The position numbers were made by a program, and so were the translations under genes. Below are positions 25,852 to 45,711 of a DNA stretch of 64,000 nucleotides, piece after piece. The stretch's first letter is position 1; every line of letters begins with the position of its first letter. The notes under the pieces are model-generated. The model was not told where the DNA came from and made no database searches. It saw nothing but the letters and a program-made list of their open reading frames with translations. The DNA comes from Terriglobia bacterium (GTDB lineage: Bacteria > Acidobacteriota > Terriglobia > 2-12-FULL-54-10), in contig CAXVYR010000003.1 in assembly GCA_963666975.2 (NCBI GenBank), positions 1,216,001-1,280,000 of the forward strand, read 5' to 3'.

Positions 25852-27116
25852 GCGATGTAGCAAACTGGCAAAACCATGCGCACTGGAAGCGGCATTTGGT
25901 GGTGGGAGGAGGGCTTGGTCTGGTTGGCCTCCTTTTCGGGTTTTGGATTGGAACGCGATCCCAGCCTGTCACTCCTCCCCCACCAATTCAAGAGTCAGCC
26001 CAGGAAAAACTGATCGAACTCAGTCTGGAGACGCAACGAAGCGCCGATCTGAAAATCACCGAGGTGGTCGAGCGCCCACTCGAGCGAACACTGGTCGCTA
26101 CCGGGGTCCTCGCCCCGGACCAGAATCGACTGGCACACATTGGTCCTCTGGCGCGAGGGGTTGTCGAGCAAGTACTGGCCCAAATCGGCGACCGAGTTCG
26201 GGTGGATGACCCCTTATTGATTTACGACAACATCGAACTGGGGGTGCTAATTGGGGAGTACTTGGTTATCAAGGCAGAAATTAAACGAGAACAAGCCCAA
26301 GCGGAAGTTGCCAAGCGTTATCTGGCGCGGGCCGAGGCGTTGCTGATGGAAGAGGCAATTGCACGCAGGGAGTACGAACTTCGCGACGCTCAATATAAGT
26401 AAGCTGTAGCTGTGGTCGAGAGCAACCAAGCCAAATTAGCCCAGGTGGAAGAAAGGATTCACCGACTGGGGTTAGACGACGAAGACTTACGAAATCTTGG
26501 AAGCTCAGGACATGACAGCCACCGCACAGCCTCTCACAGCACCTTACGCGCTCCGTTTGCGGGTGTGATCACCATGCAGGATGTGGCTTCGGGAGAGATG
26601 CTAGAACCGGACCGCGAGGTCTTTGTGCTGGCGGATACTTCCGTGGTCTGGGTGCTGGCCGGCATTTACGAAAAAGACCTGGGACAGGTAGAGGTCGGGT
26701 GGCCCTGTCGGGTCAAAGTGCCTGCCTATCCAGAGGAGGTGTTCACGGGCAAGATTGCTTACCTCAGCGATGTCCTGGATCCGACTTCGCGGACCGGCAA
26801 GATGCGTTGTGTGCTCACCAACCCGGATGGGCGCTTGAAACTGGAAATGTTTGCGACCGTCGAAATCCCTCTGCCGTTAAAGCACCCTGCGGTGCTCCTG
26901 CCGGAGGCGGCCGTGCAGAGGGTGGACCAACAAACATTAGTCTTCGTCGCTCAAGATGATTCTCATTTTGAAGCCCGCGAAGTCGAGTTAGGCGAGCGGT
27001 TCGGTGACTCGTTCGAGGTTCGGCGCGGTCTTCGCGCCGGCGAGAAAGTTGTTACGCAAGGCGCTTTCTACGTCAAGTCCGAACTGCTGCGTGACCAGCT
27101 CGGTGGAGAGGAATAG
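25848..27116 (+). pseudogene. czcB: CzcB-like heavy-metal efflux MFP with in-frame TAA at 26400-26402
   Basis: ORFs 25848-26402 and 26412-27116 are in the same frame and together give a complete MFP (LRAPFAG, NPDGRLKLEMFA). Confidence 0.88.
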
Positions 27117-27119
27117 CTT

Positions 27120-30100: not shown

Positions 30101-30223
30101 TGATCGGGGGCCTGATCACATCCACGCTGCTCACTCTCCTCGTGCTCCCCAGCATCTATCATTAGATTTGAAGAAAAGCGTGCTGAAATCGAAATTGAAT
30201 TTTACCGAGGATCTTCACCATGA
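27120..30223 (+). pseudogene. czcA: CzcA-like heavy-metal RND permease, frameshifted in G-run 28940-28944 and again near 30163
   Basis: IDAVPDITPVQVQI, GAIDFGLIVDGAVVMIEN (HME motif), RLRPVLMTA, GAEVQRPLATVVIGG. Removing one G joins the two ORFs. Removing one T near 30163 extends the gene to a TGA overlapping the next ATG. Confidence 0.9.
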
Positions 30224-31343: not shown

Positions 31344-31502
31344 GCCAGCCTTCCTTTCTTCCGAGCAACGCGAAATCGGCATCCTGGATACAAATCTGGA
31401 TACAAATATTGTAATCAACCCACCGCGCCGTGATCCAGCAGATATTAGGTTCCATAGTAACAGGCAGCCGCCGCGCTGCGCTCCTGGGCCGGCAGAATCG
31501 TC

Positions 31503-31531
31503 TTGACAGGCTAAAGGGGTAATGTTAGACC
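31503..31531 (+). promoter_or_regulatory. Sigma70-like promoter of the gntR-ubiX operon (possibly leaderless)
   Basis: TTGACA-17 nt-TAGACC with TG extension, ending 7 nt before the ATG. No SD sequence. Confidence 0.5.
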
Positions 31532-31538
31532 TTTAACC

Positions 31539-32309
31539 ATGCACCGCTTCCAAAGCCTCCAGACCGCCCGCGTTTCCGACGAAATTGCCCGCCAAATCCG
31601 GCAGGTCATTTTCTCCGGCAAGCTGAAACCGGGAGACAAGCTGCCCACCGAGCGGGAGTTGGTGGAACAATTTCACAGCAGCCGCGTCTCTGTGCGCGAA
31701 GCTGTGCGCTCCCTGGAGCACTTGGGTTTGATCAAAATCAAGCGGGGCGCCGGAGGCGGGACCTACATCAGCGAGGCAAACCACCGGCCCGTAGCCGAAT
31801 CGTTTCGGGTGCGGATGCAGTTGAACAAGGGCACGGTGGATCATTTGACTGAGGCGCGCATCTTGCTGGAGCCCGCGGTGTGCCGTCTCGCCGCCAAGCA
31901 CGCCGACGCCAAGGACCTCGATCGTCTCAAGAAAACCGTGGAGGAGCAGGAAATGCTGGTCCGGGAAGGCAGAGAGGTTGCCTCCTACGATTTGAAATTT
32001 CACCGTCTCCTTTTCGAGGCTGCGCACAACCCCGTTCTGGAGCTCACTACGGTCTCTATCATCGACCTGCTGACCAGCGCGTTAGAACAGGCGCATGTTG
32101 GCGGCAACCTGACCTCGCATGTGGTAAATTTTCACCGGGCGATTTACAATGCTCTTTCGGAGAGGAACGGAGACCGCGCCGCAGGGCTGATGAACGATCA
32201 TGTGGCCGACATTCAAAAGCGACTGCGCCCGGTTTTGATCAAGGGCCGGGGGGCAGCGGCTTTGGTTACCATCCCACCGCGCTTGCGGGAAACATCTTGG
32301 AATCAATAG
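31539..32309 (+). CDS. GntR/FadR family transcriptional regulator
   Basis: LKPGDKLPTEREL..SRVSVREA wHTH; FCD domain DLKFH..AAHN, FH..IY..MNDH. Confidence 0.93.
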   Translation: MHRFQSLQTARVSDEIARQIRQVIFSGKLKPGDKLPTERELVEQFHSSRVSVREAVRSLEHLGLIKIKRGAGGGTYISEANHRPVAESFRVRMQLNKGTVDHLTEARILLEPAVCRLAAKHADAKDLDRLKKTVEEQEMLVREGREVASYDLKFHRLLFEAAHNPVLELTTVSIIDLLTSALEQAHVGGNLTSHVVNFHRAIYNALSERNGDRAAGLMNDHVADIQKRLRPVLIKGRGAAALVTIPPRLRETSWNQ

Positions 32310-32316
32310 GTCACAA

Positions 32317-32943
32317 ATGACTGGGGAAAATTTGCAAGGGGACCCCGCAACACCGGCCCGCGAAAAGCAACCCAAAAGGCTCATTGTGGGGATATCCGGA
32401 GCCACCGGCGCGATTTACGGCATTCGTCTGTTGCAGATACTGAAGACGACACCGGAAGTGGAGACGCATCTGGTCATGTCCAAGGCTGCGGAACGAACTA
32501 TCGCCTTCGAAACTCCTCTGACCATCAAGGAAGTTCAGGCGCTGGCAGATGTAACTTACAACGTCCAAGACATCGGGGCCACCATCTCCAGCGGTTCCTT
32601 CCATGTGGGGGGAATGATTGTCGCTCCCTGCTCCATGAAGACACTGGCGGCAGTGGCCAACTCCTATACTACCGACCTGCTGAGCCGTTCTGCGGACGTC
32701 ACCTTAAAAGAAGGCCGCCGACTGGTCCTGATGGTCCGGGAGACTCCGCTGCACCTGGGCCATCTCAGACTGATGGTGCAGGCAGCCGAGATTGGGGCCA
32801 CCATTGTTCCGCCGGTTCCCGCTTTTTACAATTTTCCGAAGACGCTGGACGACATCATCAACCACACCGTAGGCCGCACTCTGGACCTGTTTCATCTGGA
32901 TGTAGAATTGGTCAAGCGATGGCGCGGGATGGCCCAAAAGTGA
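32317..32943 (+). CDS. ubiX: Flavin prenyltransferase
   Basis: VGISGATGAIYG, ISSGSF, APCSMKTL, ADVTLKEGR, RETPL and PPVPAFY motifs. Confidence 0.96.
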   Translation: MTGENLQGDPATPAREKQPKRLIVGISGATGAIYGIRLLQILKTTPEVETHLVMSKAAERTIAFETPLTIKEVQALADVTYNVQDIGATISSGSFHVGGMIVAPCSMKTLAAVANSYTTDLLSRSADVTLKEGRRLVLMVRETPLHLGHLRLMVQAAEIGATIVPPVPAFYNFPKTLDDIINHTVGRTLDLFHLDVELVKRWRGMAQK

Positions 32944-33030
32944 GTCGCGTCCTCCTGAAAACCGCCGCCAAGCGGCGGGAGCTTCTGCGAGACTTCTGGA
33001 CTGACCGTGCAGGAAGCTGCTTCCGGCAAC

Positions 33031-33426
33031 ATGAAGATTGAGGGTTGGCTGCAAAGCGGCATCGGCCGAGGAGCGCAGTTCCTTGCCCTGGAATGGGTGC
33101 AGAAGGATCTGCGCGAGAAACTAAACCTAATTCCCTTCCCAGGCACTCTCAACTTACAGGTGTCCCCGGAAGCTCGCAGTGCTTTATACGCTCAGCGGGA
33201 AGGTTTTCTCAAAATTGCCGATCCTTCCGCGCCGGAGTGCCCCGGTTATGTCACGCGAGTGATTCTTCAGCGCGGAGAACGTTCCTACCGATTCGCCTAC
33301 TTGATTCTTCCGGAGCTTACGATGTATAAGGACGTGCTGGAAATCATCGCCGAGGATAACTTGCGGGAGAAACTCAATTTGAAGGACGGGGACAAAGTGC
33401 AAGTGGAGGATATCCTCGAACGGTAA
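33031..33426 (+). CDS. Archaeal-type CTP-dependent riboflavin kinase (DUF120 family)
   Basis: G..QSGIGRGAQF, PFPGTLNL and LEIIAEDNLREKLNLKDGDKV match the CTP-dependent RFK signature. Confidence 0.82.
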   Translation: MKIEGWLQSGIGRGAQFLALEWVQKDLREKLNLIPFPGTLNLQVSPEARSALYAQREGFLKIADPSAPECPGYVTRVILQRGERSYRFAYLILPELTMYKDVLEIIAEDNLREKLNLKDGDKVQVEDILER

Positions 33427-33515
33427 GTCATCTCCCAAGCAACCCGATGAGCGTCCGCTTGCACGGAAAGCCGGGCACACGCTAAAGCTCCAACAACAAA
33501 GGCAGGTGAGACATC

Positions 33516-35126
33516 ATGGCTTCTGCATCTTCCTCTTCCGAAGTAACTCCCACGATCCAAGTTCCGGACCCGCTTAACATCGCCTCTTACTTTATAGACC
33601 GCAATCTGGAATTGGGGCGGGGCAATAACATTGCCATCTATGAAGAGAACCGTCAGCTCAACTATTCTCAGTTAGCGGAGATGGTCAACCGGACCGGAAA
33701 CGCCTTGCGCTCTTTGGGAATCGACGCTGAAAACCGGGTTCTGATGGCTGTGCCGGACTCTGCAGAGTTCGTGGCTACTTTCTTCGGGGCCGCCAAGACC
33801 GGTGCCGTGCCCATTCCTGTGAACACGGCCGCCCGCCCGGACGATTACCTCTATTTTCTGAATGACAGCGGGGCCCGTGCACTCGTTGTGCATGAAGATC
33901 TGTTGCCGCAACTGCAAGGGATTCTTCCCCAGGTTCCCTGCCTGCGCCAATTGATCCTTGTTGGGCCGTCTTCCAGCAAGCCGGGAGCGGCCTCCCCGGA
34001 GAATCCATCCGGGACAACCTATAGCTGCCACTCTTTTACAAAGCTGCTGGAGCAATCCTCTCCTGCCCTCGAGGCCGAACCTACCTCGAAGGACGATATC
34101 GCTTTCCTGCTCTACACTTCCGGAAGCACCGGCGGACCCAAAGGCGCCGTGCATTTGCAGCATGACATGCTGTTTTCCACCGAACTCTACGCCCGTTCAA
34201 TCCTGAAAATTGCGGAGCAAGACATTGCCTTTTCGGCGAGTAAACTGTTTTTTGCTTACGGGCTGGGAAACGGCATGTATTTCCCCTTTTCCGTGGGGGG
34301 CGCGGCCGTCTTGAATCCACACCGCCCCAAACCGGAGACCATCTTTGACTATATCGAAAAGTTCCGCCCGACTCTCTTCTTTGGGGTTCCGACGCTGTTC
34401 TCCTCCATGTTGCAGATACCCGAGAAGAAAGACTTGAGCAGCATCCGCTTTGCCGTCTCAGCGGGCGAGGCCCTGCCTGCCGAAATTTTCCAGCGTTTCC
34501 AGGAGCAATTCGGCGTGACGATCCTCGACGGCATCGGTTCCACCGAGATGCTGCACATCTTTATCTCCAACCGGCCCGGCGATGCCCGGCCCGGCAGCAC
34601 CGGAAAATTGGTTCCCGGCTACGAGGCAAAGATTGTGGATGACGACGACAGGGAGGTTCCGCAGGGGGAAATCGGAAACCTCTGGGTCAAGGGAGACAGC
34701 GCCGCCGCCTTCTACTGGAGAAAGCAGGAACTCACGAAGCGCACGATGATCGGCGAATGGCTGGTCACCGGTGACAAGTACACCGTCGATGAGAAAGGTT
34801 ACTTCTGCTATTGCGGCAGGGCTGATGACATGCTCAAGGTCGCCGGCCAGTGGGTCTCACCGGCGGAGGTGGAAAACGCCCTGCTCGGTTTCCCGGGAGT
34901 TCTGGAAACCGCTGTCATCGGCTTGGAAGACAACGACGGGTTGGTGAAGCCAAAAGCATTTCTCGTGATGAACCAGCAAGCTGAAGCCGGCACGGAGGAA
35001 TCGCTGCGGAAGTTTCTTAAGGGAAAATTGCGCGGCTACAAATGCCCGCACTGGTTTGAGTTTGTCCAGGAACTGCCCAAAACGCCTACCGGAAAGATTC
35101 AGCGTTTCAAACTTCGGGCTCGGTAA
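33516..35126 (+). CDS. Benzoate-CoA ligase family protein
   Basis: LYTSGSTGGPKG, KLFFAYGLGN, SAGEALP, ILDGIGSTEMLHIFISN, TGKIQRFKLR. Confidence 0.93.
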   Translation: MASASSSSEVTPTIQVPDPLNIASYFIDRNLELGRGNNIAIYEENRQLNYSQLAEMVNRTGNALRSLGIDAENRVLMAVPDSAEFVATFFGAAKTGAVPIPVNTAARPDDYLYFLNDSGARALVVHEDLLPQLQGILPQVPCLRQLILVGPSSSKPGAASPENPSGTTYSCHSFTKLLEQSSPALEAEPTSKDDIAFLLYTSGSTGGPKGAVHLQHDMLFSTELYARSILKIAEQDIAFSASKLFFAYGLGNGMYFPFSVGGAAVLNPHRPKPETIFDYIEKFRPTLFFGVPTLFSSMLQIPEKKDLSSIRFAVSAGEALPAEIFQRFQEQFGVTILDGIGSTEMLHIFISNRPGDARPGSTGKLVPGYEAKIVDDDDREVPQGEIGNLWVKGDSAAAFYWRKQELTKRTMIGEWLVTGDKYTVDEKGYFCYCGRADDMLKVAGQWVSPAEVENALLGFPGVLETAVIGLEDNDGLVKPKAFLVMNQQAEAGTEESLRKFLKGKLRGYKCPHWFEFVQELPKTPTGKIQRFKLRAR

Positions 35127-35234
35127 TTGGCTGATCGGAGGACCGGAGCAGCCTTTTGCGTTCTGCAAAGGCCCGCACGATAGAGGTCCGAAAAACGGCT
35201 GCCGTGGCGGTGATTGTGGTGAAAGGACCCGCGC

Positions 35235-35819
35235 TTACTGCTTCCTGCCCATATTCATGACGAGCCCGAAGCTCAGGCGCGCTCCTTCTGTCTTCGCCCC
35301 GGTTCCCAGGTCATCACCCCCTCTGAAGATGAGGTAGTCCACCTGAAGCAGCCGAATGGAGGCGGATTCATTGATCTTCAGGTCTATGCCTCCGCCAAAA
35401 AATCCGGTGAAACCCACAGTGCTTTCGGAAAAAGCTTGGGTCGAAACAGGGCCTTCCAGCGTCCCTTTGACCCTCAGGCGGGTGGCGCCGAGCAAAGCGT
35501 GGACGAAAACATTCCAGCGATCATTGATCCTCTCGCCTGCCCGCGGACCAACCACAAAAGAAAGCGTGCGGAAATCGACATCGGAGCTCAGGCCAAAAAC
35601 GCGCTCATTCGAAGAGCCGAAGTTACCGCTGAAGTCGGTCACAATCGCGAGGTTCCGGTTGATGTTGGTTCCCAGGGAAACATTGACCCCATGCAGGTTT
35701 GTTTTCTCCATGCGGAGAAGTGAATATCCAGTGAACAATTCTGCTTTCGGTATCTCTTGAGCTATTAAGGACAGCGGGAGCAGAACCAAAACCCCGGTTA
35801 TCAAGACCAACTTCCTCAT
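35235..35819 (-). CDS. Outer membrane beta-barrel protein
   Basis: Signal peptide, PKAELFTGYS, amphipathic strands, GGGIDL..IRLLQVDY. Confidence 0.8.
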   Translation of the reverse strand: MRKLVLITGVLVLLPLSLIAQEIPKAELFTGYSLLRMEKTNLHGVNVSLGTNINRNLAIVTDFSGNFGSSNERVFGLSSDVDFRTLSFVVGPRAGERINDRWNVFVHALLGATRLRVKGTLEGPVSTQAFSESTVGFTGFFGGGIDLKINESASIRLLQVDYLIFRGGDDLGTGAKTEGARLSFGLVMNMGRKQ

Positions 35820-36050
35820 ATAGAGGTGACCTCCTAATATTTTTGGCCTGGAAACCTGACTCTCGGGTTCTTAATACCAGGCGCCTTTCCCAACTACCCC
35901 AACTTTCACGGCCACGTCTAGGCCGCAGTTCATCGTAAGAGGGCTGCACGAAAACTGCAAGAATGTGCCCCGTCAGGGCTTGTTGGACAGGTAGAGGGTA
36001 ATAGTTAAGGTGATGTTTTTGGCTCATCGTAGAGACTGAAAGGAACGAAG

Positions 36051-36422
36051 ATGAGACAAAAACAAGACGACAGGGGGGCGGTCGAGAAGGCCGTCCGGGA
36101 GATCAAACGCAGGACGCGGCGCAGGTTCAGCCCGGAAGACAAAATCCGCATTGTATTGCAGGGACTTCGCGGCGAGGACAGCATCGCGGAGCTGTGCCGC
36201 CGCGAGGGGCTGCACCAGAACCAGTATTACCGCTGGAGCAAGGAGTTTCTGGAGGCTGGCCGCAAGCGGCTGGCGGGCGACATAGACCGTGAGGCAACCA
36301 GTGGCGAAGTCAAGACTCTGCGGGAGCAGGCCGTACAGCTGAAAGAGGCCCTGGCCGAGGCTATGCTGGAAAATCGCCTGCTAAAAAAAAGCGTGATCGG
36401 GGATGGGGAGGAACATACATGA
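36051..36422 (+). CDS. IS3 transposase OrfA
   Basis: HTH (SIAELCRREGL..YYRW). A8G slippery site at 36383-36391; the -1 frame is open into OrfB. Confidence 0.92.
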   Translation: MRQKQDDRGAVEKAVREIKRRTRRRFSPEDKIRIVLQGLRGEDSIAELCRREGLHQNQYYRWSKEFLEAGRKRLAGDIDREATSGEVKTLREQAVQLKEALAEAMLENRLLKKSVIGDGEEHT

Positions 36423-37414
36423 GATACCCTGCCTCGGAGAAGCTGGAGATCATCTGCACGGTGGAGCAATCTGCCCTGGGGGTGCGCCGGACGCTGCAGC
36501 AGGTTGGCATTCCCAGATCGACGTTTTACAACTGGTACGACCGCTATGTGTCGGAAGGCTTTGATGGGCTGGAAGACAAAAAACCCGATCCTGGCCCTGT
36601 CTGGAACAAGGTGCCGGAGGAGATAACTCAGCAGTTGGTGACGTTAGCCCTGGCCGAGCCCGATCTGTCGTCACGCGAGCTGGCGGTGCGTTTTACCGAG
36701 GAAAGGCGGTATTACCTTTCTGAATCGACGGTTTACCGCGTCCTGAAAAGCCATGACCTGATTACCGCGCCAGCCTTTATTGTCCTGAAAGCGGCGGAAC
36801 GGTTCGCCAACCCGACCACGGCGGTCAACCAGCTCTGGCAGACCGACTTCACCTACCTGAAAGTCATCGGTTGGGGCTGGTTCTACCTGTCCACGGTGCT
36901 GGACGACTTCTCGCGCTATATCATCGCCTGGCGGCTGTGCAAAACCATGAGCGCAAGTGACGTCTCGGCCACGTTGCGGGATGCTTTGCAAGCCACCGGC
37001 CTCGACCGCGTGGGCGCCCGGCACAGACCTCGCCTCCTGAGCGACAACGGGCCGTGCTACGTCTCTTCCGAACTGCAATCATGGCTGGCAGAAAACAGCG
37101 TGCCGCATACTCGCGGCAAGCCCTATCACCCCATGACGCAGGGCAAGATCGAACGCTGGCACCGAACTCTGAAAGACCGCATCCTGCTCAACAACTATTA
37201 CCTGCCAGAAGAGCTGGAGCGGCAGATCGATGCCTTCGTCAACCACTACAACACCAACCGATACCATGAAAGATACCATGAAAGCCTGAACAACCTGACA
37301 CCGTATGACGTTTTTACAGGCCAAGGCAGTGCCATCCTGCAAAAACGGGATCGCATCAAAGAGAAAACTATGATCTTAAGAAAACGGTTGCACTTCAAAA
37401 GAAGGGCAGCCTAA
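36419..37414 (+). CDS. IS3 transposase OrfB (DDE integrase core)
   Basis: WQTDFTY, LLSDNGPCY and QGKIERWH motifs. In-frame 12-bp duplication RYHERYHE. Confidence 0.93.
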   Translation: MRYPASEKLEIICTVEQSALGVRRTLQQVGIPRSTFYNWYDRYVSEGFDGLEDKKPDPGPVWNKVPEEITQQLVTLALAEPDLSSRELAVRFTEERRYYLSESTVYRVLKSHDLITAPAFIVLKAAERFANPTTAVNQLWQTDFTYLKVIGWGWFYLSTVLDDFSRYIIAWRLCKTMSASDVSATLRDALQATGLDRVGARHRPRLLSDNGPCYVSSELQSWLAENSVPHTRGKPYHPMTQGKIERWHRTLKDRILLNNYYLPEELERQIDAFVNHYNTNRYHERYHESLNNLTPYDVFTGQGSAILQKRDRIKEKTMILRKRLHFKRRAA

Positions 37415-37827
37415 CATCAACCCAGAGGAGCCTGAACGCCACCTTATCTTTTTATGCTCTGTGTCCAACATTATCTGACGACGTACAAACTTGCGATGTT
37501 TGCTCCCCCTTTCGCGTCTTCCCCATCCTATCATGAACTTACCCTCCTGCAGGTGTTATCAAGGCTTGAATAGGAAACGGAAGTTCTCTGCCAAATAGAG
37601 TCATCAGATTGCCGAAAACCGAGGGCTGTTTTTTTACAGAGCAGGTTTGCAGGAAGCCTGAAGGGAAACGTAAAAGAAAACGAGCTACAACAAAGCAGGA
37701 AAGTAAGGATCGGACGAATGAGATAGAGAAGCTAGAGCAAGTCAAATAGCATCCACGGGGCTTCTTGCAGCGTAATCCGGAGCGCCAATTGCCCCGAGGT
37801 CTCAGTGGAGCTTGAGCCTTAAATTGA

Positions 37828-38037
37828 TTACTGCACCGCCATGGTCACAATGGGACTGCTTTGCCCGGCAACAGTGAGGACCACCGGCACGTCGCTACCG
37901 GCCGTCACGCCGTCGGGAACAACTGCGTTGACTTGGTACAACCCGCTGAATCCAGGGGCCAGCCCGGAGAATTGTACCTGGGCCGAGATTTCTCCGATGG
38001 TCAGCGAAGTAGCATTCACAATCCTGGCAACAGGCAA
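37828..38037 (-). pseudogene. C-terminal remnant of a TIGR03437-type acidobacterial surface protein
   Basis: VQFSGLAPGFSGLYQVNAVVP..VPVVLTVAGQSS is the characteristic C-terminal end. There is no room for the rest of the gene. Confidence 0.7.
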
Positions 38038-38079
38038 ATAGGCTGCTAGCTCACCGTAGCCGGTTCGGCTGTTCCAAGC

Positions 38080-39603
38080 TTACTTTTTCTTCTTTCCCGA
38101 AGTTTTTGGGGATGGCGGAACCGCCAGAGGATTGGCGTTCTCCTCAAAATGGCGGATATCGGGAGGCGGTATCTTCAAACCGAACTCTTGCCAGCGGGAT
38201 AGGAGTTTCTCATAGACCTCGCGCCGCAGCCGGGAGCGCTTGGCAAACTGTTTCAGGTATTTATGCTCCTTGCAGGCATTGATCAGCGCCTTGGAGCCAT
38301 AAGGACGCTCCTCGGGAGGGTTTTTGGTGGGATCAAGGTAAGTGGACCATGTGTTGCGCAGTATATCAATATCCTTGGCGGGATCGGACCGGCTGGACAT
38401 GGCCCATAAAACCTGGTGAATGTCGGTGGGATCAACGTCCTCATCGACCACGATGATGTATTTGGTGTAATAGGCGCCGCCCGGAACCTGGGCAGCGAGG
38501 GCTGCGACCTGCGAGGAATGCCCCGCGTAGCGCTGCTCGACGGAAATCGCCGTGGCACCGAAGCCTCCGGCGGCTTCGGGAAACGAAAAGACACCCTGGA
38601 TGCCGGGAATGCCCAGCCTCTCCATGTCCGCCCAGATGCGTGCCGAGCGCACGACGCTGAACAGCAGGCTCTGCTCGCAGGCCGGATAGTCGGCCATGAG
38701 AGCGCATGTGAGGATAGGGTCCCGGCGATGGCGTATGCACTTCACGTCAATAATAGGGGTCGCAGCCTCCGGGCGGCCATAGTATCCGGAAAACTCCCCA
38801 AACGGGCCCTCCAAGCCTTCGTTTCCAGGGAGCATCTCTCCTTCCAGGATGATCTCGGCGTTGGTGGGAAGCAACAATCCCGTTACGGGGCTCTCAAAAA
38901 CTTCCACGGGTTGATTGATGAGTCCTCCTGCGTAATCATATTCCGACTCCGTCTTCGGCAGCGTCTGGGTGCTGACGGTAAACAACAACGGGTCAGGGCC
39001 GAAAACGGTGGCCACCGGGAAAGGCTTGCCGCGGCTCCAATACCGCTCCGCTTGCAAGCGTGCATCCTTGCCGGGAGACCAATAGACGAACAACTCTTGC
39101 GCGCTTTTGACCATCTGCCGGTAGGTTCCCAGATTCAGGTGCCCATCCTCCAGGTCCCGCGTGATCATCACATCCCACGTGCCGAGGTAACGGCCCCCGT
39201 CCAGGGGCCACATCTTGGGAGCCGGGAACATGGTGATATCCACCTGCTTCCCCTCGATCACATTTTCGTTCACCACGGCGCTGTCGCCGGAAACAACCGT
39301 TGGAGGAAGCTTGCGCCGGAAGTTGGTGCGCACCATATGGATCAGGTCTCTCAGAGGCGTGCCGAGAGGAAGTCCAAACGCCAGCGCGATGCGTTCCTTG
39401 CTGGTCCCGAACAGGTTGTGCAAGGTGCGGAAGCCGGGCGCGGCGTCCTTGAGCTTTTCAAACAGCAGCGCGGGAGCCCCTTCCTGCTGGGCGACCATGT
39501 AGTTCAAGGCCGAGGTCTCCTCATTCCAGTCGAGTTCCTGGGAGATGACCTGCAGCTCTCCCATCTGTTCTACTTGTTGCAGCCAGCTACGCAAGTCGCG
39601 CAT
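38080..39603 (-). CDS. UbiD-family prFMN-dependent (de)carboxylase
   Basis: DGGRY, NLGTYRQMV, EGPFGEFSGYY catalytic motif, IIVVDEDVDP. GGAGG RBS before 39603. Confidence 0.95.
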   Translation of the reverse strand: MRDLRSWLQQVEQMGELQVISQELDWNEETSALNYMVAQQEGAPALLFEKLKDAAPGFRTLHNLFGTSKERIALAFGLPLGTPLRDLIHMVRTNFRRKLPPTVVSGDSAVVNENVIEGKQVDITMFPAPKMWPLDGGRYLGTWDVMITRDLEDGHLNLGTYRQMVKSAQELFVYWSPGKDARLQAERYWSRGKPFPVATVFGPDPLLFTVSTQTLPKTESEYDYAGGLINQPVEVFESPVTGLLLPTNAEIILEGEMLPGNEGLEGPFGEFSGYYGRPEAATPIIDVKCIRHRRDPILTCALMADYPACEQSLLFSVVRSARIWADMERLGIPGIQGVFSFPEAAGGFGATAISVEQRYAGHSSQVAALAAQVPGGAYYTKYIIVVDEDVDPTDIHQVLWAMSSRSDPAKDIDILRNTWSTYLDPTKNPPEERPYGSKALINACKEHKYLKQFAKRSRLRREVYEKLLSRWQEFGLKIPPPDIRHFEENANPLAVPPSPKTSGKKKK

Positions 39604-39816
39604 GCTTCCTCCGTGTGCGGGTGGGTTATGGTTTCGGATCAGCGGCACCGGTGGGATGCTTCACAGGCAAACCCGAACTGATAATCATAATACAGAACGC
39701 CGGCGGGAATCGCGGGGAGGAAAAAGACTAGCGCGAAATTCTTCCTTATGACACCGTTTCCAGTGGTTCCGTGGAATTACTGTGTGGAGACGGCGGAGTT
39801 CTCCGCGAGGATTGCG

Positions 39817-41013
39817 TTATTCCCCATAGGTGATTCGATAAACAGCGTCGGCCCGGTCATCGGAGACATACAGCGCCCCATCCGGACCGCTGAGGACATC
39901 CACCGGGCGTCCCCAGGCCCTGCGCCCTCGCAGCCAGCCCGTGGCAAAGTCCTCCGTCCGGACGGGCTTGCCATCTTCCACAAGCACTCGCACCACCTTG
40001 TAGCCGTCCGGGATACTTCGATTCCAGGAACCGTGCAGCGCCAGGAAAACGTCTCCCTGGTATTCTGCCGGGAAATTGCCGCCCTGATAGAAATCCAGCC
40101 CCAAAGGGGCATTGTGAGCGGGCAGCTCTAACGCCGGCGAAATAGTCTCCCGGCAACGTTCCGCATCTCCATATTCCGGGTCGGGAACATTCTTTCCGTA
40201 ACAATACGGCCAGCCGTAATCGCCGGGCTCCCCAATCACGTTGATCTCCTCGGGCGGAAGATCGTCTCCCAGCCAGTCGCGGCCATTTTCCGTAACCCAC
40301 AGATTTCGGTCCTGCGGGTTCCAGCGCAATCCCACGGCGTTGCGAAGGCCGCTGGCATAGACCTCGCCTTCCCCTCCACCAGCAGGGAACCGCAGGACGG
40401 CCCCGCGCCGCTGGTCCTGCTCCTCACAAACGTTGCAACTGGAGCCGACAGAAACAAACAATTCTCCCTCGAACCCAAACGCGATGGTACGCGAGAAATG
40501 ATTTCCTCCTTGCGGCAGTTCTGGAACCACCACCACGGCCTCGCCCATCCCGAGGGAACGGCCCTGCCGCAAAGCCCCTTCGGCATCGGGAAAGCGCAAC
40601 ACCCGCCCTGTTTCGGCGACATAGAGATCACGGCCACGGAAAGCGAGCCCGTGCGGCGAGTCCACTCCCTCAAGCAGAGCGTACCGATGCGAAGCTCGGC
40701 CCGTTCGCTCGGGGTCGGCCAAAGCCATGACCCGGCCTTCCTCGGTGAGGCTTACCACGAGAACGCCCGACGGACTGAAGGCCATCAAGCGCGCCCCCGG
40801 CAGCTCAGACGCAAACAACGAGATGCGAAAGCCAGCGGGCAGGCGAACCCTGCTGAGATCAATCGGCCCTCCCACAGGGAGCGCGGGGCCGCAACCCGTG
40901 GCGGCAACAACAGCGGCAACAACAGCGACAGCGGCAGCCACACTGCCGGCCAGATGGCTCATCCATTTGGCATGGCGTCCAAAATATCTCGTTGTCTGCG
41001 AAACCATCCTCAT
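39817..41013 (-). CDS. Glucose/sorbosone dehydrogenase-like beta-propeller (probable lipoprotein)
   Basis: SVGSSCNVC, GLRNAVG, NGRDWLGDDLPPEE, YGWPYC and HGSWNRS motifs. AATG-C lipobox-like sequence. Confidence 0.88.
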   Translation of the reverse strand: MRMVSQTTRYFGRHAKWMSHLAGSVAAAVAVVAAVVAATGCGPALPVGGPIDLSRVRLPAGFRISLFASELPGARLMAFSPSGVLVVSLTEEGRVMALADPERTGRASHRYALLEGVDSPHGLAFRGRDLYVAETGRVLRFPDAEGALRQGRSLGMGEAVVVVPELPQGGNHFSRTIAFGFEGELFVSVGSSCNVCEEQDQRRGAVLRFPAGGGEGEVYASGLRNAVGLRWNPQDRNLWVTENGRDWLGDDLPPEEINVIGEPGDYGWPYCYGKNVPDPEYGDAERCRETISPALELPAHNAPLGLDFYQGGNFPAEYQGDVFLALHGSWNRSIPDGYKVVRVLVEDGKPVRTEDFATGWLRGRRAWGRPVDVLSGPDGALYVSDDRADAVYRITYGE

Positions 41014-41187
41014 CGGTGTCCCCGGAGCCTCCTAACGCCGCCGAGTTAACGCGAATCCATGCTCCGGTTTCGGGTTGGTTATTCGTTTTCGGTTGTCGCG
41101 TTTCCCGCTGCGTGCCGGAAATATTGCGACCTCGAATATATCGTAACCTAGGGAAGAAATTCTGCGGAAATCGAGCCGGTATGCAAC

Positions 41188-41961
41188 TCAGGGGACTTCT
41201 TTCGTGGATGGTCTATCAGTTTTATATGTGGGATAGTCTGCTTCCACCAGAGGTTCCGGCTTCGCCGCCGGAACTGCTTCCCCGGTCAGCAGAGCCGACC
41301 GCACAAAGGCGCCGATCTCGTCGGCAACCGCCTCGGCCGGAAGGGGTCCCTCCGGCGAGAACCACCCGGCAGTGGCGGTGCACATAGTCAAGATACAATT
41401 CCGCACCACGCTGGCATTTTTCACCTGGAAGACGCCTTTGCGGCGTCCCCGCTTCAAAATCGAGTCCAAAATCGAGTCGAAGAGGCGCTCGTACTCCTGA
41501 CGCAACTTCAAGATGACCCGAAAGTTTTTCTCTTCCAGCGAACGCAGTTCGCTGTGGCTGATAAACGCCTCCTCTTTCTTTTGCGTGTGGAACAGAACAT
41601 GCCAGCGGATGGCAGCGTCTAGTTGCTGCTCCGGCTCCTGGCCGGATTCGGAAATCTCCTGCAGGCCGCGCAGCAGCTCCGAAACCGTCCCCTGCATCAG
41701 ATCAAAGAGAATATCCTGCTTGCTGGGGAAATGGTAATAGAGGCTGGCTGCTTTGATGTCGAGCGTGGAGGCGATCTCCCTCATCGTCATGCCGGAGTAG
41801 CCGAAGTGGAACAGCAGGTGGCATCCCACCTTTCGGATCTGGTCCAGACGCGACGCGGAAGCAAGCGGTGGAGGAACAATCCCCCGTTTTCCCCGGCTCG
41901 GCGAGGCGGGCAGCAGTGTCCCCACTCCTCCCGCCACGTTCTGTCGTGAGGTCCTAGGCAT
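41188..41961 (-). CDS. TetR/AcrR family regulator (KstR2/PaaR-like C-terminal domain)
   Basis: GYSGMTMREIA..KAASLYYHFPSKQDIL HTH; W F.PEGPL C-terminus. Confidence 0.92.
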   Translation of the reverse strand: MPRTSRQNVAGGVGTLLPASPSRGKRGIVPPPLASASRLDQIRKVGCHLLFHFGYSGMTMREIASTLDIKAASLYYHFPSKQDILFDLMQGTVSELLRGLQEISESGQEPEQQLDAAIRWHVLFHTQKKEEAFISHSELRSLEEKNFRVILKLRQEYERLFDSILDSILKRGRRKGVFQVKNASVVRNCILTMCTATAGWFSPEGPLPAEAVADEIGAFVRSALLTGEAVPAAKPEPLVEADYPTYKTDRPSTKEVP

Positions 41962-41973
41962 AGGCGCTGGGTC

Positions 41974-42687
41974 CTACATAAACCTGCGGCCTTTTTCCGG
42001 GTCCGGCTCCTTCAAGCCAAACTGCTCAATCACCTTGAGGGCCTCCTCCCGGTACTGTTTGCGGCATTCAACGTTGGTGCGTTTCTTGATGCCCCACTCG
42101 TAGTACTTCTGGCTGCGCTTGGAATCCGAGCGGCCAAACATGTCCAGACAGCGGGGATACATGCGATCCAGGGATTTCTGCACCTCGGCCTTGCCTTCCT
42201 CCGTCTGGCAGAGGGTGTCCAGTATCCGCAGCCCGTGCGCAATGTGTTGCTGCTCTTCCTTCAAAATCTGCGGGATGATGCGCGACACCGGCAGGTAGCT
42301 GGACTCGCCAAAGTCTTCCAGGTGATACCCGCCCACGCGGTCGATGAAAACACCAAAGCAGCCCATGTCCGCCCAAGTGTTCAGCGGCTCGCGGAAAATC
42401 TCCAGGATGCGGTCCTTGGACCGGTTCTTCAACTGGTGGGAGACATCCACATTCAACTCAGCGAGAATCTTGACGAACTTGCGGTGGTGGTCGATTTCTT
42501 CCGCTGCGGTCTTGGCCAGCATCAGTTGGTCCTCGGCCGTGGGCGCCGCCAGAATCCATTTCTCAACATAGAGGTGCGGACCACCCAATTCGCTGTCGGC
42601 TTGGATCGTCAAGACCTTGAGCAGCAAGTCCTGATACTCTTTGTCCATCTTGGGGAATTCGGCTGCTTCAATTCGGTCGGTAAACAT
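41974..42687 (-). CDS. Compact BoxB/PaaA-like ferritin-fold di-iron aryl-CoA epoxidase subunit
   Basis: QADSE, EEIDH, FIDRVG and EEQQH di-iron ligands; SSYLP; LDMFG; WGIKKRTN. Confidence 0.82.
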   Translation of the reverse strand: MFTDRIEAAEFPKMDKEYQDLLLKVLTIQADSELGGPHLYVEKWILAAPTAEDQLMLAKTAAEEIDHHRKFVKILAELNVDVSHQLKNRSKDRILEIFREPLNTWADMGCFGVFIDRVGGYHLEDFGESSYLPVSRIIPQILKEEQQHIAHGLRILDTLCQTEEGKAEVQKSLDRMYPRCLDMFGRSDSKRSQKYYEWGIKKRTNVECRKQYREEALKVIEQFGLKEPDPEKGRRFM

Positions 42688-42708
42688 ACGTTCAACTCCT
42701 TATGGAGA

Positions 42709-43227
42709 TTATTTGGATTTCCTTTTTGCTTTCAAACCGGTGGGCACAACGCGCTTCCAGCTTTCGGAAAAGCGCACGCCCGAGTTCTTCAATAAATTAT
42801 GCACAGGGCAGCGTTCCACCAGCCGCTTGCGCCACAGAGCAAGCCTGCGAGGAGGCTCCTTTGTTGTAACCAGCGCTTGCACGCGCACCGAGGGGATCGG
42901 CTTGCGGACGCGGGCCAACCCGTACATGCCGCGCGGGTCCAGTTGGGCCGAGATGGTGAACTCCAAATTGCGGAGGTCGAAATCCATGGTTTTTGCCACA
43001 AAGTTGCCCACAACGCTCAGGGAGGCTGCATAGGCGCCCAGAATCGCCTCCAGAGGCATTAGCCCCCGGTTGGAACCGCTGAGCAACTCCGGCATGTCCA
43101 GCCGCAAAGCCTTGCCGCGCGCGCGAATCAATACGCGGCTGGAGGTCTCCATCCTGGCCTCTACGAGCACTCCTGTTTGGGGAATTTTCCGAAGCTTCAG
43201 CACAAGATTTTCCTCATCGGTCCTCAC
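42709..43227 (-). CDS. OsmC-family protein
   Basis: DMPELLSGSNRGLMPLEAILGA, LDPRG and ERCPVH motifs. The first conserved Cys is replaced by Ser. Confidence 0.85.
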   Translation of the reverse strand: MRTDEENLVLKLRKIPQTGVLVEARMETSSRVLIRARGKALRLDMPELLSGSNRGLMPLEAILGAYAASLSVVGNFVAKTMDFDLRNLEFTISAQLDPRGMYGLARVRKPIPSVRVQALVTTKEPPRRLALWRKRLVERCPVHNLLKNSGVRFSESWKRVVPTGLKAKRKSK

Positions 43228-43243
43228 CCTGACAAGTGTTAGG
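43228..43243. promoter_or_regulatory. Palindromic operator, probably bound by the co-transcribed TetR
   Basis: CCTGACA-AG-TGTTAGG lies between the promoter and the osmC start codon. Confidence 0.6.
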
Positions 43244-43250
43244 CAGAATT

Positions 43251-43279
43251 ATTATGAAGGTGTTATTCCTGCCTGTCAA
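43251..43279 (-). promoter_or_regulatory. Sigma70 promoter of osmC-epoxidase-tetR operon
   Basis: Minus strand TTGACA-GGCAGGAATAACACCTT(17)-CATAAT. Confidence 0.75.
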
Positions 43280-43633
43280 GATCGATACTGTGCAGATCGA
43301 AACTGTGCATGCTGGCTCACAGATAACAGCAAGGAAAGAAGGAAAAATGGCGTCGTCTCCTGGGCGGGGTCTTTGCCCTGAAAACAAAATATGGACACAA
43401 AATATCCTTGAGCCCCCCTCTGCCAGCCGTTGTAGTACAATAGGCGACGCAACGGGATGGGTCCGGAAGACCGCTCAAGACCGTTATCATTCGCATGGAA
43501 CCCGCAGCGCAAAGAAGCGCCTGACCCTGGCCTCGAACCAGGGCTGACCTGAACTCGAATGATGTTCCACTTCCGCCAGACCGCTTAGTTTTTCTGCCCA
43601 CCCCGCAAACCTCACAACTCAGGGAGGTGAATT

Positions 43634-44293: not shown

Positions 44294-45580
44294 CTACTCG
44301 CGGCCTGCCTCCAGACCATAGGCCTGGGCCAGCACGACGATGGGGTGGATCGCCTTTTTCCCCGCCCCCTGCTCGATCTGCACCGCGGAGAGCGGGCAAT
44401 CGGTGACGCAACGTGCTTCCTCGTCGGCTTTCATGAAGTTGAACAAGGGCTTGCCCACCTTCATGGATTCTTCAAAGTATTCTTTCTTTACGCTCCATGC
44501 GCCGTCGTGCCCGCTGCAGCATTGCAGGCGGTCCACCTCGGCTCCCGGAATCAGTTGCAGCAGTTCCTGCGCTTTGAAACCCATCTCTTGCGCCATCAGA
44601 TGGCAGGGCTGGTGGTAGCGGAGTTTTCCCACCTTCTGCGAAAAGTTCAGGTCCAGCTTTCCCTCCGCATGAAGCTTCACCAGGTATTCGGAAAGATCAT
44701 AGGTATTCTCGGCGACCAGTTTGGCGTCGTCGGTCGTCACATAGCTCGGGTAATCGTGTTTGAGCATATAGCTGCAACTGGCGCTGGGCGCCACAATTTT
44801 GTATCCTTGCCGGACAGCCTGGCTCAAGACGGCCACGTTCGACTTCATTTTCTTCACGGCTTGGTCCAGCATGCCGTTGTCGATGAACGGAAGTCCGCAG
44901 CACTGCTGGGGCGGAACAAAACACTCGATTCCGTTCTTCTCGAAAACCTCGACGGCCGCCTTGCCGATCACCGGCTCGTTAAAATTGACCGTGCAGGTGT
45001 AGAAGAGAACCACTTTGTCTTCGCCCTTCTTCTGGCCGGGAGCCGCGCGACGGGAGCGCCGCCGATGCCATTTTTCAAAGGTCTCGGAATAAAAGGTGGG
45101 CAGCAAGCGGTCTCGATGAACGCCCAAATACTCTTCCAGCACGCCGCGCAGCAGCGGGTTGCGGTTCGCCCAGTTGACGATCGGCGCCGCGTAGCTCGAC
45201 AGGCGGCCCACCAGATCGGTGTTTCCGAATATTTTATTGGCGAAGGGTACCCCTTCCTGCTTCTTCCGGACGAGGTTGTAGCGGATCAGCGTGCGGGGAA
45301 AGTCCAGGTCCAGCTCATGGGGAGGAGTATAAGGACAGATGGGATCGCAAATCTTGCACTGGTAGCACAGATCTGCGACTTCGTTAATCTGCTTTTCACC
45401 CAGCGATTCCACGTTTCCGAAAATGCCCGCCGCGTCGTCGGTCACCTCGAACAGTTTGACGAAAGAGGGACACAGTGTATAGCAAACCCTGCACCCGTGG
45501 CAGACGTCAAAGACCCGCACGACTTCCTTTCGCGTTGCTTCTGGATCCCAAAACTCGGTGGATTGAAGATCAAAGTTCAT
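44294..45580 (-). CDS. GlpC/HdrD-like Fe-S oxidoreductase
   Basis: CHGCRVCYTLC and CYQCKICDPIC ferredoxin motifs plus two CCG domains (QCCG; PCH..CCSG). Confidence 0.9.
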   Translation of the reverse strand: MNFDLQSTEFWDPEATRKEVVRVFDVCHGCRVCYTLCPSFVKLFEVTDDAAGIFGNVESLGEKQINEVADLCYQCKICDPICPYTPPHELDLDFPRTLIRYNLVRKKQEGVPFANKIFGNTDLVGRLSSYAAPIVNWANRNPLLRGVLEEYLGVHRDRLLPTFYSETFEKWHRRRSRRAAPGQKKGEDKVVLFYTCTVNFNEPVIGKAAVEVFEKNGIECFVPPQQCCGLPFIDNGMLDQAVKKMKSNVAVLSQAVRQGYKIVAPSASCSYMLKHDYPSYVTTDDAKLVAENTYDLSEYLVKLHAEGKLDLNFSQKVGKLRYHQPCHLMAQEMGFKAQELLQLIPGAEVDRLQCCSGHDGAWSVKKEYFEESMKVGKPLFNFMKADEEARCVTDCPLSAVQIEQGAGKKAIHPIVVLAQAYGLEAGRE

Positions 45581-45711
45581 GAACTGGAGTTCCTTCCTTT
45601 CCTTTCGCAACTGCAATAGCCGGGCTGGACATCCTGGCATTTCCCGCCCGCCAGAGCATGGGACGCTGGATACTGACCCAGGACATCTTTATCTATTTTA
45701 TCTATGTCCCG

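Follow-up and report, generated by a model that had tools for sequence, protein, structure and literature searches.

Whether neighboring genes for a prenylated flavin mononucleotide (prFMN) decarboxylase, a benzoate-CoA ligase, and a small di-iron protein make up a single aromatic-acid pathway is the question raised by the locus described here. It belongs to the genome of a Terriglobia bacterium (G000; 4.23 Mb in 4 contigs; completeness, 98.9%) and was analyzed within a window of 64,000 nucleotides (G000:C3:1216001-1280000). On the plus strand, genes for a GntR regulator, the flavin prenyltransferase UbiX, a CTP-type riboflavin kinase, and the ligase form an operon (gntR-ubiX-ribK-bcl); facing it on the minus strand are genes for an OsmC-like protein, a stand-alone relative of PaaA and BoxB (here, the PaaA-like protein), a TetR regulator, a GSDH-like protein, and a UbiD-family protein that we designate UbiD-W (Table 1). 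Genes were called from a list of open reading frames together with Pfam and NCBIfam profile scans of the window, and those listed in the initial annotation, which had proposed a self-supplied prFMN decarboxylase, CoA ligation, and dearomatization by the PaaA-like protein, were all recovered where it had placed them.

Our answer, held with moderate confidence, is that the locus has three layers: (i) a conserved backbone, (ii) an accessory aromatic-acid module around ubiX, and (iii) an autonomous osmC-like/paaA-like/tetR unit. In the accessory module, gntR stands before ubiX, the kinase and ligase genes behind it, and the UbiD-W gene converges on them. An aromatic acid, probably a dicarboxylate, would be imported and decarboxylated in its free form by UbiD-W, and the ligase would turn the resulting benzoate-like mono-acid into its CoA ester, with GntR sensing either the acid or that ester. 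The putative extra kinase would raise the FMN supply for prFMN synthesis in a cell that has 11 prFMN enzymes, and the PaaA-like unit would run from a promoter of its own, its TetR resembling acyl-CoA-sensing repressors. Gene identities, copy numbers, synteny, co-occurrence, and the absence of known benzoyl-CoA routes are the observations from which we start; we infer what kind of substrate is used, whether decarboxylation precedes ligation, what the kinase does, and whether the di-iron protein is connected.

A shared ubiX and the accessory genes around it

A protein search recovered one UbiX match in the genome; the sole other Flavoprotein-family match sits in a 408-amino-acid (aa) frame that we take to be of the CoaBC type. 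UbiD-family genes, by comparison, number 11, one of which (L120:5893-7353) encodes a menaquinone decarboxylase that passes the MqnL equivalog TIGR03701 (627 bits; cut-off, 496). With one ubiX and 11 UbiD paralogs, this ubiX must therefore also serve the housekeeping menaquinone decarboxylase and nine other paralogs and is shared, not dedicated to UbiD-W. The picture of a self-supplied prFMN decarboxylase is consequently not supported, all the more as ubiX keeps the same backbone position in relatives that have no UbiD, ligase, or kinase gene beside it. These relatives come from a family comparison set of 14 genomes, G000 included, in 8 genera; several of the genomes are 69 to 88% complete.

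The backbone runs in the order prephenate dehydrogenase (PDH), GlpC-like protein, cytochrome c, GSDH-like protein, and ubiX. In G004, genes for UbiX, GSDH, cytochrome c, and PDH occur in the window's order with no kinase, ligase, UbiD, GntR, or PaaA-like unit, and G006 is similar. Because of this order in G004 and G006, we read the accessory genes as occupying gaps of a conserved backbone, whether they were inserted there or were lost from the smaller genomes. The GSDH-like gene itself is absent from the cluster of G003 and present in that of G005.

The PF01982 domain of the kinase occurs in a single copy in G000 and in 10 of the 14 family genomes, in all 10 of them directly downstream of ubiX. 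The control genomes that matched PF01982 were all archaeal, and among 300 other genomes sampled from the phylum, a single true match was found, where a HAD domain is fused to it and UbiX is not its neighbor. Like the archaeal RibK enzymes MJ0056 (Protein Data Bank [PDB] code 2P3M) and that of Thermoplasma (3CTA), the window protein is a member of PF01982, and its PFPGTLN motif (PYxGTLN in 3CTA; PxPGTLN as the common pattern) and C-terminal motif align with theirs; unlike them, it is bacterial, always next to ubiX in the family, and additional to RibF, and it scores below the methanogen equivalog (57.8 bits; cut-off, 168). The presence of RibF rules out the CTP-type protein as the cell's only riboflavin kinase. 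Judged from this distribution of sequences, the predicted archaeal-type kinase is a lineage-specific addition. A literature search found no paper on UbiX together with a riboflavin kinase.

UbiD-W and the ligase co-occur across the family. UbiD-W orthologs (at least 76% identity) are found in G000, G002, G003, G005, G009, G010, G012, and G013, and ligase orthologs (at least 63% identity) are found in the same 8 of the 14 genomes; the remaining 6 (G001, G004, G006, G007, G008, and G011) have neither. The coupling of an accessory UbiD with a CoA ligase, as first suggested, is supported by orthologs that track each other. In the genus g8 (G009, G012, and G013), the UbiD-W ortholog is found on a different contig, arranged in tandem with the paralog that is 64% identical to it, and the UbiX, kinase, and ligase genes remain together; both UbiD-W and the ligase being present there, the pair is kept even when unlinked.

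Where the two gene groups are linked, their adjacency is older than the insertion sequence (IS) that now lies between them in G000. In G003 (genus g2) and G005 (genus g4), neither with an IS at this place, the genes for OsmC, the PaaA-like protein, TetR, (GSDH), and UbiD converge on those for the ligase, kinase, UbiX, and GntR, with about 100 bp separating the UbiD and ligase ends in G005, and four metagenome contigs (L141, L146, L147, and L148) show the same convergent arrangement, again without an IS. These six instances dispose of the idea that the adjacency was created by the IS, which the initial annotation had raised as one way in which its proposal might fall. As to the genes beyond the shared core, the ligase gene of G003 is followed by one with a Meth_synt_2 domain (L039:10858-11955), and in both G003 (L039:15575-18316) and G005 (L041:13902-16923), a second AMP-binding ligase gene and a family-III CoA-transferase gene precede gntR on the same strand; the G000 orthologs of the latter two (60% and 75% identical) lie scattered over contig C3.

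UbiD-W belongs to a large subfamily: 2,996 proteins from many phyla were recovered at E ≤ 1e-50 among the 8,000 candidates scored, and members with 50 to 60% identity occur in metagenome-assembled genomes (MAGs) titled Desulfatiglandales, Syntrophorhabdales, Desulfotomaculum, Betaproteobacteria, Rhodospirillaceae, Chloroflexota, and Archaeoglobi. In a set of 55 nonacidobacterial loci of this subfamily, GntR homologs (30 to 38% identity) were found in 15, in most of them directly upstream, UbiX in 9, and a ligase match in 9, of which three are at 41 to 48% identity (L085, L101, and L110). Two of the latter, the betaproteobacterial loci L101 and L110, combine GntR, UbiD, UbiX, and a benzoate-type ligase, and uptake genes of the TRAP, TTT, or ABC type were present in 5 of the 7 loci scanned with Pfam. 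Taken with the family data, this supports the prediction that UbiD-W works with the gntR-ubiX-ribK-bcl operon.

In sequence, UbiD-W has the three UbiD domains (PF20695, 59 bits; PF01977, 198 bits; PF20696, 108 bits) and exceeds the cut-off of the subfamily model TIGR00148 (275 versus 245 bits). At the metal/prFMN-binding and catalytic positions, N172, R177, D195, E236, E280, and E285 are invariant in 15 aligned sequences; their spacing presumably matches that of the N...R and E...E pairs of fungal Fdc1, and D195 stands where many UbiDs have His. UbiD-W falls well below both the UbiD equivalog NF008175 (180 bits; cut-off, 788) and MqnL TIGR03701 (216 bits; cut-off, 496), and another paralog passes the latter. 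We therefore reject UbiD-W as the housekeeping enzyme of quinone biosynthesis, in agreement with the initial annotation. Among NCBIfam models, it matches PpcB (299 bits) and VdcC (273 bits) best, without reaching either cut-off. The ligase, with AMP-binding and AMP-binding_C domains, has as its nearest solved relatives benzoate-CoA ligase (PDB code 2V7B; 457 bits) and anthranilate-CoA ligase (4WV3; 451 bits) and is itself an accessory copy, the core paralog (47% identical) lying on contig C2.

The osmC-like/paaA-like/tetR unit and the missing aryl-CoA outlet

The initial annotation had gone further and made the PaaA-like protein the dearomatizing step. Such an integrated pathway, in which the acid is decarboxylated and CoA activated and the PaaA-like protein then dearomatizes or hydroxylates the aryl-CoA without PaaBCE or BoxA/BoxC, under the control of an acyl-CoA-sensing TetR, is in our judgment unlikely. 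The evidence bearing on it comes from the protein itself, from its regulator, from the distribution of the unit, and from the routes that the genome does or does not have.

The protein shares with the components of PaaABCE and BoxAB a ferritin-like fold, and six positions (E33, E64, H67, D116, E145, and H148) do not vary among 14 sequences, which speaks for an integrated pathway; they align with PaaA Glu42, Glu72, His75, Asp126, Glu155, and His158, where we take Glu42 to be a di-iron ligand as well. The other five are named among the di-iron residues of PaaA (PMC4498308), so that all PaaA di-iron ligands are accounted for. At 237 aa, it is nevertheless shorter than PaaA (about 310 aa) and BoxB (471 aa) and far below both equivalog cut-offs (PaaA TIGR02156, 107 versus 280 bits; BoxB TIGR03225, 34 versus 499 bits), and it is as similar to an uncharacterized 235-aa protein (PDB code 4MUD) as to PaaA. 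Its family is uniform in length, and the named members found come from Acidobacteria, Nitrospiraceae, Chloroflexota, and Binatia. Nothing but weak matches, all in frames of true PaaA size, turned up in 3 of the 300 other genomes sampled from the phylum. Four PaaA_PaaC-family genes are scattered singly in G000. A 239-aa paralog 35% identical to the window's (G000:C4:296885-299381; L129:4111-7381; minus strand), is followed on the same strand by a 2,3-dihydroxybenzoate-AMP-ligase-like gene (567 bits versus 724) and a PcaD-like alpha/beta hydrolase gene, and this pairing with an aryl-acid-adenylating gene and a hydrolase also speaks for a role in an integrated pathway.

So does the regulator. The nearest structures to the TetR protein are PfmR (PDB code 3VPR; 62.5 bits) and then KstR2, both of which sense acyl-CoA, and a CoA ester is thus a possible substrate for the products of the unit. 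PfmR is reported to regulate the metabolism of phenylacetate and of fatty acids (PMC7022988). The third member of the unit is less informative: OsmC/Ohr peroxiredoxins have two conserved catalytic cysteines, and in the OsmC-like protein only one Cys was found, in a C-terminal CPV motif, so that a peroxidase function is doubtful; searches by sequence gave no PDB match for it.

The distribution of the unit points the other way. Wherever the PaaA-like gene was found in the family (10 of 14 genomes), the OsmC, PaaA-like, and TetR genes form a tight three-gene unit, with gaps of 21 and 12 bp in the window, and this unit adjoins ubiD in three genera, which favors integration. Against it, the unit occurs in G008 and G011, both without UbiD-W and ligase orthologs, and in genus g8, a separate contig carries it, apart from UbiD-W and the ligase. 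Beyond the family, in 50 metagenome loci of at least 3 kb each around distant PaaA-like genes, the neighbors include TetR in 18, UbiD in 2, a weak ligase match in 1, and OsmC in none, the others being heterogeneous (NamZ, globin, cupin, Ddl-like, and Usp); conversely, homologs of the PaaA-like, OsmC, and TetR proteins were found in none of the 55 nonacidobacterial UbiD-W-type loci. TetR is therefore the only recurrent partner of the PaaA-like protein, and a literature search on stand-alone PaaA-like proteins with TetR found nothing relevant. On these grounds, we treat osmC-like/paaA-like/tetR as a putatively autonomous unit, and the assignment of its di-iron protein to the dearomatizing step is left unsupported.

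No reductase gene adjoins the PaaA-like gene, which is a further point against an integrated pathway. A candidate for a reductase partner is the GlpC-like protein, paralogs of which are encoded near both di-iron genes of the family (the second of these is described below). The GlpC-like Fe-S/CCG stand-alone proteins at window positions 44294 to 45640 and at G000:C4:59079-60347 are 69% identical paralogs; the window copy adjoins the PaaA-like unit and has no GlpA or GlpB gene next to it, and some 7 kb separate the other from the BoxB-like gene (some 2 kb in G002). None of the 50 distant loci has a GlpC gene next to the PaaA-like gene.

The idea of ring attack by di-iron proteins is also kept alive by the absence of any known outlet. 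At least three UbiD modules of G000 are tied to CoA activation: besides UbiD-W with its ligase, the most divergent UbiD paralog, which is phthaloyl-CoA-decarboxylase-like (G000:C3:596325-600586; L127), is followed by two family-III CoA-transferase genes, and a PpcA-like paralog adjoins the gene for an ADP-forming acyl-CoA synthetase. For the aryl-CoA expected from these several routes, no known outlet was found. The boxA, boxC, paaB, and bcr/bam marker families are absent from the window, as the initial annotation had stated, and the absence extends to the whole genome, where BoxA and PaaB have no match, BoxC reaches at best 56 bits (cut-off, 712), HGD-D (the class I reductase core) and AOR/BamB (class II) have no match, and Oah reaches at best 86 bits (cut-off, 464). 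A whole-genome search thus revealed no box, paa, or bcr operon elsewhere that would explain the genes of the locus. HGD-D is likewise absent from G003, a complete genome in a single contig, and is present in four other family members.

The genome does encode a second di-iron protein, a BoxB-like protein of 379 aa (G000:C4:66960-68099; L130:5960-7099; minus strand) that scores 194 bits against Azoarcus BoxB (PDB code 3PER) and 197 bits against TIGR03225 (cut-off, 499) and in which the ligand motifs align. Its gene is divergent from one with an extended shikimate-kinase domain in 5 of 6 family loci, and the 10 of 14 family genomes with strong matches to it are the very ones that have the PaaA-like gene. 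One could go on to suppose that the family makes aryl-CoA through several UbiD-linked modules, that the stand-alone 237-aa and 379-aa di-iron proteins attack the ring without BoxA/BoxC or PaaBCE, and that the kinase is dedicated to UbiX; taken together, this is a long shot, and ring attack by the di-iron proteins is a lead, not a result.

Order of decarboxylation and CoA ligation

Returning to the accessory module, we favor a free aromatic acid as the substrate of UbiD-W, with the ligase acting on the product, because PhdA is the closest solved relative and because the subfamily occurs in carboxylate-uptake contexts. The match to PhdA (PDB code 7PDA) extends over residues 16 to 487 with 277 bits; PhdA is the phenazine-1-carboxylate decarboxylase of Mycolicibacterium fortuitum (PMC10850782), a decarboxylase of a free aromatic acid. 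The relation is distant, the gene context is different, and no phenazine genes were seen. As for uptake, a DASS carboxylate symporter gene comes directly after that of the sister paralog of UbiD-W in G000 (64% identical), and the neighbors of the other UbiD paralogs of G000 include DASS, MFS, and ABC transporters, amidohydrolases, a LigB dioxygenase, two CoA-transferases, and an ADP-forming acyl-CoA synthetase.

The reverse order, with an aromatic dicarboxylate first activated by the ligase and its CoA ester then decarboxylated by UbiD-W, is quite unlikely in our estimation. It has its model in the anaerobic breakdown of phthalate isomers, where succinyl-CoA:phthalate CoA-transferase or isophthalate-CoA ligase is combined with a UbiD-type acyl-CoA decarboxylase and UbiX (PMC9516798), and members of the subfamily do lie beside CoA ligases in MAGs titled Syntrophorhabdus, Desulfatiglandales, and Desulfotomaculum. 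The window module would share with these systems a CoA-activating enzyme, UbiD, UbiX, and a benzoyl-CoA-type thioester as the product. UbiD-W, however, is remote from the phthaloyl-CoA decarboxylase structures 8PMK and 8OZ5 (57 to 58 bits, versus 277 bits to the free-acid enzyme PhdA), a comparison that covers phthaloyl-CoA decarboxylase among the enzymes acting on CoA esters of phthalate isomers; the genome already has a separate phthaloyl-CoA-decarboxylase-like paralog with CoA-transferases; the ligase is of the mono-acid benzoate/anthranilate family and not of the phenylacetate-CoA-ligase type reported for isophthalate (PMC9516798); and a benzoyl-CoA reductase pathway is missing from the genome. 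That the genes are mere neighbors by descent, with the ligase, UbiD, and kinase in unrelated tasks and the osmC-like/paaA-like/tetR unit related to stress or iron, would accord with the conservation of housekeeping PDH and GlpC in the same loci, the dispersal of the parts in genus g8, and the hint at stress roles from the OsmC-like gene and the globin and Usp neighbors of distant PaaA-like genes, but it is also quite unlikely given the perfect match of UbiD-W and ligase presence and absence in 14 genomes, unlinked genus g8 included, the recurrence of the same four families in two betaproteobacterial loci, and a kinase beside ubiX in 10 of 10 cases although its family is nearly absent from the phylum.

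Signals of expression and regulation are sparse. The gap between gntR and ubiX is 7 bp. Two metatranscriptome libraries contain short identical contigs over ubiX (32349 to 32640), the PaaA-like/TetR junction (41939 to 42194), and the OsmC/PaaA-like junction (42489 to 42733). A promoter-like TTGACA-17-CATAAT lies at 43279 to 43251, upstream of the osmC-like gene. No shared GntR operator was found; the only element common to both groups is an 11-mer, TCTTGACAGGC, with a -35-like TTGACA, at window positions 31493 to 31503 and 43272 to 43282, upstream of gntR and of the osmC-like gene. A terminator scan did no better than shuffled sequences (15 found; 15.7 expected).

Several points weigh against decarboxylation of a free acid by an accessory module of this kind. 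The 8/6 co-occurrence is drawn from kindred genomes in only 8 genera; G001 is uninformative as a natural deletion because the whole region, including the backbone gene for GlpC, is missing from it; several others of the six genomes with neither ortholog have a completeness of 78 to 88%; and since the PDH and GlpC neighbors are conserved in the family too, synteny alone is no proof of function. No RNA-library contig of full identity covers ubiD or the ligase gene, and the RNA contigs that were found give no expression levels and may reflect DNA carry-over. Import of the acid is deduced from relatives, as there is no transporter gene in the window cluster. Tight repression by GntR would, awkwardly, silence the housekeeping ubiX as well. 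With no known benzoyl-CoA route and no visible outlet for the module, room is left for the di-iron proteins. Finally, the known phthalate-isomer systems ligate first and decarboxylate the CoA ester (PMC9516798).

Surroundings of the locus and its place among known systems

The features of the locus are listed in Table 1; the remaining genes of the window have mostly housekeeping functions and include those for aromatic amino-acid biosynthesis, RuvAB, citrate synthase, and an RND pump.

Table 1. Features of the ubiX locus, in window coordinates
Feature	Position	Strand	Basis and remarks
GntR/FCD-family regulator	31539..32309	+	Pfam GntR and FCD domains; opens plus-strand operon
UbiX flavin prenyltransferase	32317..32943	+	NF004685, 275 bits (cut-off, 188); TIGR00421, 229 bits (cut-off, 109)
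CTP-dependent riboflavin kinase family (archaeal RibK type)	33007..33426	+	PF01982, 84.6 bits (cut-off, 25)
Benzoate-CoA ligase family enzyme	33516..35126	+	TIGR02262, 597 bits (cut-off, 375)
Small outer-membrane beta-barrel protein	35235..35819	-	Pfam OMP_b-brl, 28.9 (cut-off, 28.7)
Probable IS3-family insertion sequence, 1524 bp	35964..37487	+	orfA, 36051-36422; orfB, 36419-37414
Gene remnant, no start	37828..38079	-	Stop-to-stop frame; last 83 codons of a repeated C-terminal domain family
UbiD-family prFMN (de)carboxylase UbiD-W	38080..39648	-	All three UbiD Pfam domains
Exported GSDH-like beta-propeller (PQQ sugar dehydrogenase type)	39817..41013	-	Pfam GSDH, 78 bits
TetR-family regulator (TetR_C_24)	41188..41961	-	Pfam
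Stand-alone PaaA/BoxB-like ferritin-fold di-iron protein, 237 aa	41974..42687	-	PF05138, 107 bits
OsmC-like protein	42709..43227	-	Pfam OsmC, 36.8 bits (cut-off, 27.5); opens minus-strand unit

The N terminus of the GSDH-like protein resembles a lipoprotein signal. The beta-barrel gene was seen at its position in genus g1 only, a 92% identical ortholog adjoining the ligase gene in G002, and was not found in the loci of G003 or G005.

The IS was provisionally assigned to the IS3 family by its orfB, which passes NF033516 (175 bits; cut-off, 160) and stays below the IS481 model (201 versus 224). Its ends are TGTGCC...GTACA, the terminal TG...CA being common to the copies; 31 copies of at least 1,400 bp, nearly all about 99% identical, occur in the genome. 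No clear target duplication is visible at the window copy, which is heavily covered by RNA-library contigs, and contigs of one DNA run, which may be that of the source sample, span both of its junctions. In G002, from the genus of G000, homology breaks off precisely at the left edge of the IS, with different flanks past that point; within this genus, therefore, the spacer separating the two operons has undergone rearrangement.

The remnant abuts the ubiD stop codon and belongs to a family with more than 20 related domains in the genome by tblastn. The corresponding place in G002 is taken by a gene of about 3 kb of the same family, and an origin of the remnant by simple deletion is thereby partly supported, the G002 gene being only 57% identical over the domain. 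In genus g1, UbiD has about 15 extra C-terminal residues (window positions 38080 to 38130), for a length of 522 aa versus 505 to 507 aa in the other genera, and its stop codon is in frame with the downstream remnant.

Other genes of the window also look damaged. The RND efflux operon upstream (window positions 25848 to 30165) appears degraded: its AcrB gene is split between 27120-28949 and 28966-30165 in different frames, covering Pfam model positions 4 to 603 and 620 to 1017, and the gene for its membrane-fusion protein is likewise in two pieces (25848-26402 and 26412-27116). A glutamine synthetase frame (22616 to 23560) spans only positions 2 to 215 of the 344-position catalytic-domain model and may be truncated or frameshifted. 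Along with the 31 near-identical IS copies, that frame suggests a genome undergoing IS expansion and gene decay. As to habitat, a run labeled "sponge metagenome" (X15) has contigs that match window positions 31547 to 31800 and 39965 to 40238 without a difference, which is a weak hint only.

A module of UbiD/UbiX plus a CoA ligase is of a known kind. In the furan-2,5-dicarboxylate route of Cupriavidus basilensis, HmfF and HmfG (UbiD and UbiX) remove one carboxyl group, and the ligase HmfD then makes the CoA ester of the mono-acid; the module proposed here would share with it the decarboxylation of an aromatic dicarboxylate by UbiD and UbiX followed by an adenylate-forming ligase, and the distant UbiD-W-subfamily locus L085, where a molybdenum hydroxylase gene lies beside those for a ligase and UbiD, recalls the same route. 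UbiD-W is not an HmfF ortholog (156 to 159 bits to the HmfF structure 6H6V versus 277 to PhdA), and in contrast to the Hmf route, the window ligase is of the benzoate type and no CoA-ester hydroxylase is encoded in the window. What is new is the ubiX-linked bacterial CTP-type riboflavin kinase, along with a genome in which many modules form aryl-CoA and are accompanied only by orphan di-iron oxygenase-like genes.

UbiD/UbiX enzymes are sought after as catalysts of (de)carboxylation, and the large subfamily of UbiD-W has no characterized member. A riboflavin kinase wired to UbiX, if that is what the predicted operon provides, would be a clue to how cofactor supply is secured in cells with many prFMN enzymes. 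Aryl-CoA-forming modules without a known benzoyl-CoA outlet leave a blank in what is known of how Acidobacteriota of soil and peat turn over aromatic carbon. Should the di-iron proteins not fill it, the locus is a catabolic module that is uncharacterized but ordinary; if stand-alone di-iron oxygenases do act on aryl-CoA, they would constitute a new aerobic aryl-CoA route.

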